From: a virus
Reading direction: 5' to 3' (one strand)
DNA length: 11,430 bases
UHGV virus genome: UHGV-0107525
Shown here: piece by piece, positions 1-11,430 of the stretch
Layout of the letters: every line of letters begins with the position of its first letter
Numbering within the stretch: the stretch's first letter is position 1
Notes under the pieces: model-generated
Databases searched by the model: none
Seen by the model: the letters and a program-made list of their open reading frames with translations, nothing else
What the model was told of the DNA's origin: nothing
Program-made: the position numbers and the translations under genes

Positions 1-453
1 ATATTTGGTTGTAACACGGCGTATGGCACATGCGTCGTTAGCGGTCTGGTGTAGCTGTTAGGTACCTTTTACTAACACTGCATGGGCACATCAGGTAGCC
101 GGAATGTGCAAGCCCCGTTCATATCGTCGGACCGAGGACTCACCATCCTGGCGATTCGGTGTGACAGCCGGAAGAGCACGGCGCACAACAGGAAAAGGCG
201 TTTAATTAGCGTGAGCGCCGTTTCCGTTGTGGTAATTGCGGCTATGCGCTCGTGACGAAGCCATTTTCATTAATTGCGGTTCTGATAAGTGTCGTCGCCG
301 GGCGTGGCTGACCTGGCAGGTGGAGGCACCACCGCCACAACTCCTTTCAATTCATCATATAGCCGCTCAGGCTGTAACCCTTAATTAATACGAAGTTTCG
401 ACATATCTATCGGTTTAACCGAGAGATGGTCGCGCGTGTAAAAAGGAGACGTT

Positions 454-1029
454 ATGTTAATGGCGAACGATAACGCATATGCAGAAGAAGATCTCATTTT
501 GAGTGACTTCATCGGTCAGCGGGAACGCTGGACACAAAAGCGAGAGGAACTTTATGCCTCGTTAGTTCGCAAAGGTGTCAACATTGAAACCGCTCAAAGC
601 GGCGATATGACGGTAGTCAGTGTTGGATTACATGGTGTGAGCGTGTCCGCAGCCAATCATGAGCCATACGTAGCGTTATCCGAGTCGATGGCAAGGCTAA
701 TTAAGTTTCTGAAGCAAACAGAAGCCAATAATGTTTTCATCGCCAAAAAGAACATCAATTTTTCTGCCGCCGTGTTCTGGATGATGAAGGGGCTTGACGC
801 CCGCCGGGCATCATGGCCTAAAGGGAGCTATATGTCGATGTTCCGTGGCAGTATTGGCAGTAAAGAAAAGCTCGTCGAATTCCTGCCGGAAGAAGCATTC
901 GATATTGTGGAAGGGTGCGATGTGATGGTTATGCCTCGCCTGGTAATGATGAATGGGGATTTACAGGCGCAGACAGACTGGTTCGCAACTGGCGTGGATA
1001 TTATCGCAACTGACTGGGAGGCATTCTGA
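454..1029 (+). CDS. Hypothetical protein with C-terminal DUF2829-like domain (Tad2-like fold candidate)
   Basis: ATG at 454 with AAGGAG 5 nt upstream. C-terminal ~90 aa carries the DUF2829 signature seen more clearly in the 8666-9343 ORF: FSAAVFWMMKGLDARRASWPKG and a terminal DIIATDWEAF block (compare FSDALMWLKEGKKVARRGWNG and DLLACDWFVVE). Stop overlaps the next start (ATGA). Domain call is by-eye motif recognition, not a profile search. Confidence 0.55.
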   Translation: MLMANDNAYAEEDLILSDFIGQRERWTQKREELYASLVRKGVNIETAQSGDMTVVSVGLHGVSVSAANHEPYVALSESMARLIKFLKQTEANNVFIAKKNINFSAAVFWMMKGLDARRASWPKGSYMSMFRGSIGSKEKLVEFLPEEAFDIVEGCDVMVMPRLVMMNGDLQAQTDWFATGVDIIATDWEAF

Positions 1030-1421
1030 TGTACGAGACTACAAAATTAAGCATTCACGAAGCCTCCAATGTGGAGTGGAATATCGTTACCTGCAAGATT
1101 GTATCGTGTAATGCTGCCCGAACTGATGCAGGCTATAAGAGCACGATAACAGGCTACATGGTAATGGCTTATAGGGGATTGAGAGTTCGCTTTATCTGGA
1201 AAGCTCGGCAATTGACACCATTCAGAGAGCCGTCAATGCCATTAGAGGTAGAACAGGATTATTTAAGCCTGCCGGAAATAGACGGTGCAACGCTGGTGGA
1301 TTCTGATGGTCGTAAGGCTGATTTTGAAGTCAGCTTAAAGGTGGCGCAGGCCGTAATTAATAACTCACGTGGTAAGTGGATCGCTAAGGTAAAACACGTC
1401 GTTCGCTTATCTCGCTGGTAG
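1029..1421 (+). CDS. Hypothetical protein (130 aa)
   Basis: ORF translationally coupled to the upstream gene (ATGA overlap at 1027-1031). No recognisable motifs. Confidence 0.45.
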   Translation: MYETTKLSIHEASNVEWNIVTCKIVSCNAARTDAGYKSTITGYMVMAYRGLRVRFIWKARQLTPFREPSMPLEVEQDYLSLPEIDGATLVDSDGRKADFEVSLKVAQAVINNSRGKWIAKVKHVVRLSRW

Positions 1422-5854: not shown

Positions 5855-5872
5855 TATTCCTACTCGATTTAG

Positions 5873-5881
5873 TTTTCTAAC
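5873..5881. repeat. Copy of repeated motif (A/T)TTTCTAAC, candidate repressor operator, upstream of the 345-aa gene
   Basis: TTTTCTAAC lies 19 bp upstream of the - strand start codon. Related copies at 5958-5966 (inverted), 6048-6059, 7272-7283 and 1438-1449. Confidence 0.3.
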
Positions 5882-6047
5882 ATAAAATTACTATGACAAA
5901 TCTATGCCGAATAACAGGGTGAGTAAAGGATCAAGATGTGTTTTTTTATCATCAAATTTAGAAAATTCCGCCTAAAAACTGCCTGGCATAACTTAAAGCC
6001 CACACCATCAATGCATTGCCCATCTGCGCGGAAAGGAAAAAATTTCC

Positions 6048-7268: not shown

Positions 7269-7271
7269 GAT

Positions 7272-7283
7272 TAAATTTCTAAC
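7272..7283. repeat. Second copy of 12-bp motif TAAATTTCTAAC, between dre and the downstream operon
   Basis: Exact 12-bp match to 6048-6059, located 4 bp after the dre stop. Confidence 0.3.
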
Positions 7284-7342
7284 ACACCTTTTTAGATTGT
7301 TATCTTTGCTGTAAAGTACCCTCTCCTATTTCGGAGGGTGCT

Positions 7343-8665: not shown

Positions 8666-9343
8666 ATGGCTAGCATAGCAACGAAAGAGCTTTTTAGGTT
8701 CATTCCCAAATACAAAGCTCACAAAATCGTTAGTGCATCGAAAATCAAAAATGTTGTTATTTTCGGAGTAACTGATACCCCACTTTGGGGCAGCATCGAA
8801 CTCGTTGAGCCAAAAGGGGCAACAGTTTGTGTTGACGCAATGTTTTTACAAAAACACCGACCAAAAACTGGCGGGTATCTGATCGTTTATGAAAACGGTT
8901 ATCTGTTCTATGCCCAGGAGAAACCATTTGAGGAATGCTATGCCCTGGTTAACGACGCCTCCGAAAATGGAACCACGGTCATCATTACGGATGACAACGG
9001 CGTGATGACTAATCTTACCGGGAGCGTAACTATTTCTGCTGGTGGCATCACTACTCAGCAAGAAGAAATCGACCTTGAAGCAGCCGACTTTTCTGACGCG
9101 CTGATGTGGCTGAAGGAAGGAAAGAAAGTTGCTCGACGCGGGTGGAACGGCGAAAACCAATTCTGCTGGCTGGTTCCTGAAGGACAGTACCCAGCACGAA
9201 TGGAAGCCATTAAGGGATATTTCCCCGGCGACCTCGTTCCGTATGGTGCTTATTTCGCCTTAAAAAATGCACAAGGTGTAGTTGTTCCGTGGGTGCCTTC
9301 GGTAGGCGACTTACTGGCGTGTGACTGGTTTGTAGTGGAGTGA
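8666..9343 (+). CDS. DUF2829-domain fusion protein (Tad2-like C-terminal domain, unknown N-terminal domain)
   Basis: C-terminal about 85 aa FSDALMWLKEGKKVARRGWNGENQFCWLVPEG...VVVPWVPSVGDLLACDWFVVE matches the DUF2829 signature (F-x-x-A-L-x-x-L-K-x-G-K-K-V-x-R-x-G-W-N-G ... D-L-L-A-x-D-W). GAGGAAAG RBS before the ATG at 8666. Confidence 0.75.
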   Translation: MASIATKELFRFIPKYKAHKIVSASKIKNVVIFGVTDTPLWGSIELVEPKGATVCVDAMFLQKHRPKTGGYLIVYENGYLFYAQEKPFEECYALVNDASENGTTVIITDDNGVMTNLTGSVTISAGGITTQQEEIDLEAADFSDALMWLKEGKKVARRGWNGENQFCWLVPEGQYPARMEAIKGYFPGDLVPYGAYFALKNAQGVVVPWVPSVGDLLACDWFVVE

Positions 9344-9349
9344 TTTGAC

Positions 9350-10117
9350 ATGGAAAGCACCAAAACAATTCAATACCGCTTGCGTAATGGCCTGCTGGTG
9401 GCTGTTAACGCTGATATGTCACTGCCGTTTGACACGATAGAACGCACTATCATGACGTATCTCGGCTTTAATGAAGAGCTGAATGAAGAGCATGGCGTAG
9501 CTATATGGAGTGATGCAGACAGCGGCGTTCGTCGTTACATCACTGCCAGAGGCAAAGACTACTCTCTGGAAGAACTGTTTACCCTTGCGCAGTCTTTCGA
9601 ATGTGTAGCATTGGACCTGTTTAATGATCCTGCTATAGCGCAACGACTTATCCGCGATCTTGGACTGTCGGTTACCCCAATTATCTTTAAAAATGGCAGC
9701 CTGACTGGCACATGGCGCGTAGAACGCATCTCAAACTACCTTCCATATAACCGACAGTTAAATGGAGTAATCTCCGGCGTTAATCAGCCCGTAGCGTGTG
9801 AAAATGTAAACCTGGTTGTCGCTGTTTTGGCAACCGCATGTCGTGTTATCGGTTTGGCTAAACAGGCATTTATTCATTTCCCAAATGGTGCAGAAGGTAG
9901 CGCAGAGATTATCGCGTGTGATTTCGAATTTACCTGGATGCTACGCGAATATCTGGACCAAACAGTATTCCGTGCCGAAGAACTGGATATGTATATCACG
10001 TCAACGATTCCAGACGATGTGCGAGCTGAAGCAATCGCTACAGCCAGGGCGAAATGCCGTGCGGCGATTGCAGAACAGGCCAAAGAAGAAGTTAAGGAAG
10101 TGGCAGATGGCGACTAA
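9350..10117 (+). CDS. Hypothetical protein (255 aa) with acidic C-terminus, translationally coupled to the terminase-like pseudo-ATPase
   Basis: ATG at 9350; acidic tail AEQAKEEVKEVADGD; stop at 10115-10117 overlaps the downstream start at 10107 by 11 nt. No recognisable catalytic motifs. Confidence 0.6.
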   Translation: MESTKTIQYRLRNGLLVAVNADMSLPFDTIERTIMTYLGFNEELNEEHGVAIWSDADSGVRRYITARGKDYSLEELFTLAQSFECVALDLFNDPAIAQRLIRDLGLSVTPIIFKNGSLTGTWRVERISNYLPYNRQLNGVISGVNQPVACENVNLVVAVLATACRVIGLAKQAFIHFPNGAEGSAEIIACDFEFTWMLREYLDQTVFRAEELDMYITSTIPDDVRAEAIATARAKCRAAIAEQAKEEVKEVADGD

Positions 10118-11201
10118 GAGCAATATTTATAAAGATCCGCGCTGGCTGTCGCTGGTGGAGAAATATAAAGACAATTGGGTACTGGCAGCAAAAGAATTGT
10201 TTGATATTGATTTAAGCCACCAGCAACAACAAATTGTTGAAGCTATACAGCCCAACAATGCAAAAGCTACTGTCACCACTCCGTATGGGATCGGACGACC
10301 GCAAGTGCTTGCTGTTATTAGTACCCTTTATACGATTATGTATCCTGATTCCCGGACAGTAATTGTTTATCCAAAATCAAATGTTTGCAAAAGAGGAATT
10401 GTTGCATATGTGTGGCAATGTTGGGAGGCATTGCTGAAAAAACAACCTTTTATCATTGAGTATTTTAAGGTCGGTGATAGCGGTCTGATGTTCAATGAAT
10501 TTTGGGGAATGTGCTTTTGTAACTACCGCCTTAACTATGAAGATAGCATTGCAGGTCACTACGCCGACCATCTTTTATTCATTATTGTGGATTCCGTACA
10601 TATCAGCGATCGGGCATACAGCATTGTGTGGGCAAGCATGACTAGTGGTGATTCACGCATATTGCTCACTTCAATTCCGTCACCAGAGGAAATAGGCTTT
10701 TTTTATGATTCACATCATGGACGTGCTTTAGCTGAAGATAATCCGAGTGGTGTATATAAAGCCATTAAGCTGAGTGCGGAGGATTCACCATTTATTACCC
10801 AAGAATATCTTGATCATTTTGCCGAAAGGTATGGCGGGCGAAATAGTGATGACTATCGTCGTATGATTCTTGGTGAGTTCCCTGGTATTAGGGAGGCTGT
10901 TCTTGAATCAGATATGCCGAAGACAATGCGCTTTTCGATGCCTGATGGTAGTGAATGGACAATGCCATTACGAGTGATAGCCCGGCATCATGCGCAGCAC
11001 CACGCCAAAAAACATGGCGTCACGACATTAGAATGGTTGAAATCGCACACTATTCCACTCTTCACTGCAGATCACAATGCTATCGTTGAGTGGGCAAAAA
11101 CAATTCCGTGGGAGCATGTCGCTGAATATGCTCACATGCTGAAGCCTCCGAAAGACAGACACGAAATTAGCTGGCTGACAGCAGAAAAAATCATTGAGTG
11201 A
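10107..11201 (+). CDS. PacB (terminase large subunit) ATPase-domain paralogue with degenerate Walker motifs and no nuclease domain (predicted pseudo-ATPase)
   Basis: Start at ATG 10107 (AAGGAAG RBS 6 nt upstream) rather than the track's upstream 9816. The first ~250 aa align without gaps to PacB 3283-4791 (blocks DPRW, SHQQQ, TVT, PD-R-IV, HLL-I, G[YF]FYDSHH, DNPxG, ESPFxT, YGGR, LG[QE]FP). Walker A GHGTGKSS is replaced by PYGIGRPQ and Walker B ILDE by IIVD. The C-terminal ~110 aa are unrelated to the PacB nuclease domain and His-rich (RHHAQHHAKKHG). Confidence 0.8.
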   Translation: MATKSNIYKDPRWLSLVEKYKDNWVLAAKELFDIDLSHQQQQIVEAIQPNNAKATVTTPYGIGRPQVLAVISTLYTIMYPDSRTVIVYPKSNVCKRGIVAYVWQCWEALLKKQPFIIEYFKVGDSGLMFNEFWGMCFCNYRLNYEDSIAGHYADHLLFIIVDSVHISDRAYSIVWASMTSGDSRILLTSIPSPEEIGFFYDSHHGRALAEDNPSGVYKAIKLSAEDSPFITQEYLDHFAERYGGRNSDDYRRMILGEFPGIREAVLESDMPKTMRFSMPDGSEWTMPLRVIARHHAQHHAKKHGVTTLEWLKSHTIPLFTADHNAIVEWAKTIPWEHVAEYAHMLKPPKDRHEISWLTAEKIIE

Positions 11202-11207
11202 TAGTAG

Positions 11208-11238
11208 GAAGCCCGCCTGGTTGAGCGGGCTTCTTTTC
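11208..11238. terminator. Intrinsic terminator hairpin between convergent genes
   Basis: GAAGCCCGC-ctggttga-GCGGGCTTC: 9-bp perfect stem followed by TTTTC on the + strand; sits between the pseudo-terminase stop (11201) and the doc stop (11237-11239). Confidence 0.65.
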
Positions 11239-11430
11239 AAATATTGGAACCATATAGTTCACGTAGTTTTTCCGCTACTGAAGATACGGGGATTTCACCA
11301 GTTGCAGCCCCCACCGCAAGTTCCACCAGCACGGGAGAATCATATACCTGTATACCGTTACGGCGTAGAAATAGCAGCGCACTGTTTAGCGCGGTACGCT
11401 TATTGGCATCATTGAATATATGCCCTCTCG
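11237..11430 (-). CDS. doc: Doc toxin (Fic-family kinase of the phd-doc addiction module), 3' portion; N-terminus lies beyond the window edge
   Basis: Reverse-strand translation from the window edge gives RGHIFNDANKRTALNSALLFLRRNGIQVYDSPVLVELAVGAATGEIPVSSVAEKLRELYGSNI, containing the Fic/Doc motif HxFxDANKR and closely matching the C-terminus of P1 Doc as recalled. Not in the ORF track because the start is off-window. Confidence 0.9.
   Translation of the reverse strand, partial: RGHIFNDANKRTALNSALLFLRRNGIQVYDSPVLVELAVGAATGEIPVSSVAEKLRELYGSNI

Follow-up and report, generated by a model that had tools for sequence, protein, structure and literature searches.

Tad2 is a sponge by which phages take up signal molecules of bacterial immunity. 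The gcADPR pocket has been described for SPO1 Tad2 (W25, N26, W73, D79, T78, S76, H71, D67, I63, and T65) and for HgmTad2 (W21, N22, G23, M76, A78, T82, V84, W87, L88, S90, T92, and D93), and mutation of W21/N22 in HgmTad2 abolished binding (10.1101/2023.05.01.538930; 10.1101/2023.11.15.567273). MoTad2 binds His-ADPR and cUMP/cCMP. A sponge-diversity screen lists 18 tested Tad2 homologues in its Table S2, and their activities differ: Tad2_68 inhibits Thoeris of types I and II, Tad2_79, which has a W-S loop (KWSKD), inhibits type I and IV Thoeris, Tad2_72 (AWPKN) gave a positive result for type I Thoeris in plaque assays, and Tad2_69 (RRASWPQG) was negative for all seven systems, which were of the Thoeris, CBASS, and Pycsar types (10.1101/2025.08.24.671296). 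From an automated screen, Tad2-type genes are reported for 93% of D6-like phage-plasmids (10.1101/2025.09.12.675607).

The DNA analyzed here, referred to as the window, is the whole 11,430-nt stretch of the virus genome UHGV-0107525. Its source is a D6-like relative of P1, that is, a phage-plasmid of Escherichia coli, Shigella, and Salmonella: the first 6 to 8.5 kb are 88 to 89% identical to Escherichia phage D6, and positions 300 to 1500 are 99% identical to the E. coli plasmid NZ_AP027678. The window encodes two proteins in which a Tad2-like (DUF2829) domain follows a separate N-terminal domain, and the upstream one, here called orf6, is the subject of this analysis. The relevant features are as follows.

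443 to 448, plus strand: Shine-Dalgarno sequence AAGGAG of orf6, 5 nt 5′ of the ATG, read from the sequence
454 to 1029, plus strand: orf6-type gene for a two-domain Tad2-like fusion of 191 aa with ATG start and TGA stop, from the list of open reading frames
454 to 747, plus strand: N-terminal domain of orf6 (residues 1 to 98), alpha-alpha-beta-beta-beta-alpha, with a dsRBD-like or phage ABA-sandwich-like fold
757 to 1023, plus strand: Tad2-like domain of orf6 (DUF2829, PF11195; residues 102 to 190), long-insert subtype, from Pfam, PDB profile, Foldseek, and alignments
1029 to 1421, plus strand: orf5-type gene, 130 aa, from the list of open reading frames and PHROG 7004; its start overlaps the orf6 stop (TGATG)
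8666 to 9343, plus strand: canonical Tad2-like fusion, 225 aa, with the Tad2 domain at residues 141 to 224 (Pfam E value, 1.3e-22)

orf6 is a real gene, and both of its domains are under purifying selection. It matches PHROG 7362 over its full length, and its equivalent in D6, gp006 (92.7% amino acid identity), is annotated as a "hypothetical protein." The dN/dS ratio against D6 is 0.08 overall, 0.06 for residues 1 to 100, and 0.11 for residues 101 to 191, which is comparable to lpa, pacA, and pacB, and therefore, both halves are constrained coding sequence. In PLSDB, 119 plasmids have the orf6-orf5 segment and 117 have the D6-type pacB, with matching host distribution; hence, orf6 is effectively core to the D6 lineage. 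In a tblastn search of phage genomes with the orf6 protein, D6 was the sole match, indicating that P1 has no orthologue at that sensitivity.

The C-terminal domain genuinely belongs to the Tad2/DUF2829 family but is divergent. Residues 102 to 190 matched the Tad2-like family PF11195 with 37.8 bits (E value, 2.9e-9; profile positions 2 to 72 of 73), the curated Pfam cutoff being 25 bits. When 1.8 billion representatives were searched exhaustively with HMMER, orf6 had only 28 relatives at an E value of ≤1e-3, about a dozen of them two-domain proteins with 19 to 42% identity. A family profile built from 14 sequences among these relatives and run against the PDB matched all solved Tad2 proteins, namely, SptTad2 (6e-12), HgmTad2/AcrIIA7 (2.6e-11), ModTad2 (1.8e-8), and SPO1 Tad2 (2e-8), and the matches were confined to profile positions 105 to 198. 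The AlphaFold2 model of full-length orf6 (pLDDT, 87.9) points in the same direction: it has the Tad2 fold, in which an antiparallel sheet carrying an insert comes after an N-terminal helix, and the six best Foldseek matches in the PDB were all Tad2 proteins (probability, 1.00), with target-normalized TM scores of 0.60 to 0.72 to 9eib, 8wje, 8wjd, and 8kbi. The initial annotation had ascribed a DUF2829 signature to the C-terminal ~90 aa and had proposed profile searches and structure prediction as checks. Both were run; the Pfam score, the PDB profile, and a profile comparison with the second fusion (see below) agree with the assignment, as does the predicted fold, and the two strings it had quoted are indeed present in the translation (FSAAVFWMMKGLDARRASWPKG at residues 103 to 124 and DIIATDWEAF at residues 182 to 191).

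Among the solved proteins, SptTad2 (8wjd) and HgmTad2/AcrIIA7 (8kbi) share with orf6 not only family and fold but also a long insert of similar length with an "LP" motif, the α1 motif F-x-x-A…G…R-x-x-W, a Trp-Trp clamp together with an Asp, and a C-terminal A-x-D-W. Unlike them, orf6 has a folded N-terminal domain of ~98 aa and W-P in place of W-N-G. To compare the pockets, orf6 was aligned with SPO1 Tad2, HgmTad2, and MoTad2, and the predicted orf6 pocket comprises W121, P122, M165, Q171, W176, F177, T179, V181, and D182. W121 and W176 align with the ligand-clamping tryptophans of SPO1 Tad2 (W25/W73) and HgmTad2 (W21/W87), and D182 aligns with the ribose-binding Asp (D79 and D93, respectively). 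Together with M165, these three residues are retained, and F177, T179, and V181 are conservative changes. Neither tryptophan varies anywhere in the two-domain family (14 to 38 members in alignments A2 and A3), whose overall identity is only 19 to 25%; D182 is present in 10 of the 14 two-domain members. The diphosphate-contacting Asn-Gly (N26 in SPO1 Tad2; N22/G23 in HgmTad2), however, is absent and replaced by a single proline, so that the loop W121-P122-K123 is one residue shorter than the W-N-G loop, and the adenine side of the pocket is formed by Gln171, Gln173, and Val181. The cyclic-dinucleotide pocket of HgmTad2 (R31, S47, F70, and N85) is mostly not conserved, the equivalents by profile alignment being R131, an arginine that only the D6 clade keeps, together with F143, V159, and T174; in this, that is, in not keeping the cGG-pocket residues, orf6 differs from HgmTad2.

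The second fusion (8666 to 9343) has the same general layout, with its Tad2 domain behind a separate N-terminal domain, but is canonical in its pocket, which has WNG and W-x-P-S-x-x-D. It scored 80.5 bits on PF11195, compared to 37.8 bits for orf6, matched ModTad2 (9eib) in the PDB with an E value of 2.5e-21, and shares 68% identity with Tad2_68 and 46% with MoTad2 (9eib). It was found in 229 plasmids, of both the P1 and the D6 types. BLASTP aligned the two fusions with 26% identity over 89 aa (E value, 5e-4), and hhalign aligned the orf6 family profile with the second fusion at a probability of 96.7% (E value, 3.8e-10). In both comparisons, the alignment was limited to the C-terminal domains, and therefore, the N-terminal domains of the two fusions are unrelated. 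Thus, orf6 is the more divergent of the two and is fused to an unrelated N-terminal domain, as had been claimed from the sequence. The same annotation had cautiously suggested different ligand specificities, and this idea fits the data. With a proline for Asn-Gly and Gln/Gln/Val on the adenine side, orf6 probably prefers a ligand other than that of the second fusion, and since the latter resembles Tad2_68 and MoTad2, different targets of the two fusions are plausible.

The N-terminal domain (about residues 8 to 98, folded from ~11 to 91) is predicted with a pLDDT of 88 to consist of two helices, three strands, and a long helix. In a viral structure library, only two proteins matched over the whole domain, one from a Bacillus phage and the other labeled "Phage ABA sandwich domain" (TM score, ~0.6; E value, 0.02). 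Sequence-level searches gave no counterpart: there was no match to PF18066 (Phage ABA sandwich; PDB 1r7l), no credible match in a PDB profile search with the domain, and no Pfam match, including dsrm, for any of the 15 family members at an E value of ≤10. In those HMMER matches that contain it, the domain is always fused to a Tad2-like domain. It lacks the basic RNA-binding motif (see below) and is more likely a protein-protein interaction or oligomerization module.

The window starts directly after trnI and continues with orf6, orf5, lpa (1530 to 1922), pacA, pacB, c1 (on the minus strand), a gene for a Cre-like recombinase, two uncharacterized genes, dut, the second fusion, an uncharacterized gene, a pacB-like paralogue, and the end of doc. 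The terminase genes thus lie downstream of orf6 with lpa, in line with the position first noted for the fusion. In D6, the order is tciA-tciB-tciC-trnI, ~450 nt, and then orf6-orf5-lpa, and orf6 relatives in Pantoea and other P1-like elements have the same neighborhood, near lpa and pacA/B. P1 has the same tci-trnI block, which is followed by ban-dbn within the C1-controlled ban operon. orf6 therefore occupies the slot of ban-dbn, which makes early or derepressed expression plausible, and by analogy to P1, orf6 may be transcribed with an early, repressor-controlled operon.

The 17-nt motif TTAATTTTCTAAYATAA occurs at 1438 to 1454, 5869 to 5885, and 7271 to 7287 (3 sites compared to 0.04 expected), that is, upstream of both lpa and c1 and immediately behind the gene for the Cre-like recombinase. 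D6 has it at the same positions and once more before a pmgS-like gene, and it is probably the operator of the D6-type C1 repressor. The motif was not found between trnI and orf6, and the P1 C1 operator consensus had no match in the window within 3 mismatches. A sigma-70 and terminator scan of positions 1 to 2000 gave nothing above chance and no promoter directly upstream of orf6, and neither a tRNA nor an Rfam family was found. The spacer after trnI (1 to 185) is 79% identical to the trnI-ban spacer of P1 and has a hairpin at ~56 to 80, whose stem is GTTAG/CTAAC in the window and GGGG/CCCC in D6 and P1; this spacer does not fold better than shuffled sequences (z, −1.2) and has no Rfam match.

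Through the TGATG overlap, orf5 is translationally coupled to orf6. It is 77% identical to its D6 counterpart at the amino acid level (dS, 1.16; dN/dS, 0.11) and is thus faster evolving but still under purifying selection. In the large protein database, all homologues of orf5 were close ones, and Pfam, NCBIfam, and the PDB gave no match. Behind the orf6 homologue, an orf5 homologue is present in the divergent loci L007 (32% identity; E value, 5e-17) and, weakly, L004 but is absent in two others, L003 and L006. It is possible that orf5 is a partner of orf6 that is conserved only in closer relatives.

What can be said about the function of orf6? On balance, we think that it probably is a Tad2-type immune-signal sponge whose specificity has probably shifted, as judged by analogy to the characterized family members. 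orf6 would be a soluble two-domain protein that oligomerizes via its C-terminal domain, as in the solved Tad2 proteins. Pockets at the interface, with the W121/W176 clamp and D182, would bind a nucleotide-derived signal (a cADPR isomer or a related molecule), and by this sequestration, the host effector would never be activated. Consistent with such a role, all DUF2829 proteins whose mechanism has been demonstrated act as sponges, and even highly diverged members retain the two tryptophans and the Asp, although conservation of the two tryptophans could also reflect folding alone. The identity of orf6 to any tested Tad2 is only 19 to 27%. The nearest are Tad2_69 (27% identity; E value, 5e-8) and Tad2_72 (25% identity; E value, 6e-7), which have the RR-x-(S/A)-W-P-(K/Q) loop of orf6 but consist of one domain each (80 and 108 aa, respectively). 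With Tad2_69 inactive in all seven systems despite the shared RRASWPxG motif and Tad2_72 active, neither predicts the activity of orf6. W-P or W-S loops occur in active (Tad2_72 and Tad2_79) as well as inactive homologues, and therefore, such a loop is compatible with activity against Thoeris but not predictive of it. The inactivity of the closest tested homologue nevertheless argues against a sponge, as do the loss of the phosphate-binding N22/G23 of HgmTad2 and the poor conservation of its cyclic-dinucleotide pocket. The inactive homologue and the lost Asn-Gly would fit a Tad2 fold that has been reused as a protein-binding or regulatory module. Together with orf5, the N-terminal domain, or both, such a module would serve a core function of D6-type elements, for example, their replication or maintenance or the control of the lytic switch beside lpa. 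Presence in essentially every D6-type plasmid is unusual for accessory anti-defense cargo, and the position in the ban-dbn slot, the N-terminal domain found only in fusion with the orf6-type Tad2 subtype, and a translationally coupled orf5 kept in closer relatives also speak for reuse. However, the retained clamp, the activity of W-P loop homologues against Thoeris, and the absence of orf5 in two of the related loci, which makes it no universal partner, speak against it, and we consider reuse possible but the less probable explanation. A further reading appears rather unlikely to us, namely, that the orf6 family forms a separate two-domain branch of the Tad2 superfamily, core to its lineage, whose remodeled pocket (W-P and Gln171/Gln173/Val181) captures a signal outside the seven tested, or whose ABA-sandwich-like N-terminal domain (plus orf5 in closer relatives) couples capture to a second activity; D6-type elements would then carry two complementary sponges as standard equipment.

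Other functions might be read from single features of the protein. The N-terminal domain has the α-β-β-β-α arrangement of double-stranded RNA-binding domains, and it is imaginable that it binds dsRNA, for example, to mask phage dsRNA, with the Tad2 domain being secondary. However, its best matches among dsRBDs are TRBP dsRBD3 and Staufen "RBD"5, both of which are non-RNA-binding, protein-interaction dsRBDs, and the RNA-contacting motifs KKxAK (at the start of helix 2) and GPxH (loop) are absent; the stretch equivalent to KKxAK is E70-P71-Y-V-A-L-S-E77, which is acidic or neutral and devoid of lysines. With the missing dsrm match and whole-domain matches to phage ABA-sandwich-type proteins, dsRNA binding is very unlikely. 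The name "MW1434 family type I TA system toxin," which NCBI/UniRef attaches to P0007 and P0049 and which one source uses for the 56%-identical homologue, would make orf6 a type I toxin. This name traces to an 81-aa Staphylococcus aureus prophage protein that was called a toxin by bioinformatic prediction only (PMC6266405). orf6 is a globular protein of 191 aa with two domains and a confidently predicted soluble fold, not a short hydrophobic peptide, it matched no NCBIfam model, and no antisense RNA family was found; by size, fold, and missing antisense RNA family, the toxin reading is effectively refuted. Equally improbable is an anti-CRISPR protein like AcrIIA7. AcrIIA7/HgmTad2 is among the closest solved relatives (E value, 2.6e-11), but its inhibition of Cas9 comes without shown binding or mechanism, and AcrIIA7 has been reinterpreted as a sponge, for which reason we rejected this reading. 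The enterobacterial hosts of D6-type plasmids are not known to carry type II CRISPR-Cas as a rule, which also counts against it.

Tad2-type genes of D6- and P1-like elements are already captured by automated screens, and Pantoea relatives of the two-domain family are labeled "Thoeris anti-defense Tad2 family protein" at NCBI; orf6 is therefore a divergent addition to a known family, and what is undescribed is the domain partner of its Tad2-like domain. Clinical E. coli, Shigella, and Salmonella commonly carry D6- and P1-like phage-plasmids. Should orf6 be active, each element of the D6 type would possess two different Tad2-type sponges, one with a canonical and one with a remodeled pocket, a natural case of one fold diversifying its ligand range. 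If it is inactive as a sponge, the DUF2829 annotation overpredicts anti-Thoeris function there. orf6 is also a cheap and concrete candidate in the search for a new sponge specificity, and its study would open a first route to the function of the phage "ABA-sandwich"-like domain.

Two further observations concern the surroundings. Downstream of the second fusion, positions 10107 to 11201 (plus strand) encode a protein of 364 aa that is paralogous to the ATPase half at the N terminus of the PacB terminase (37% identity over 258 aa; E value, 2e-61). Both Walker motifs are degenerate, Walker A having changed from GHGTGKSS to PYGIGRPQ and Walker B from LILDEA to FIIVDS, and the protein has no nuclease half; possibly, it is an inactive terminase decoy. 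The segment from 9350 to 11430 is covered to at least 80% in only ~34 plasmid records, and the pacB-like gene is missing from the closest plasmid, NZ_AP027678. A third Tad2-like fusion, of 172 aa (PF11195 E value, 9e-7), is encoded at positions 413 to 931 of L004, a distantly related phage-plasmid contig of 89.7 kb, just upstream of a pmgS-like gene, whereas D6 encodes a VRR-NUC protein at the corresponding place. Acquisition of more than one DUF2829 fusion thus seems to be a trait of P1-like elements.
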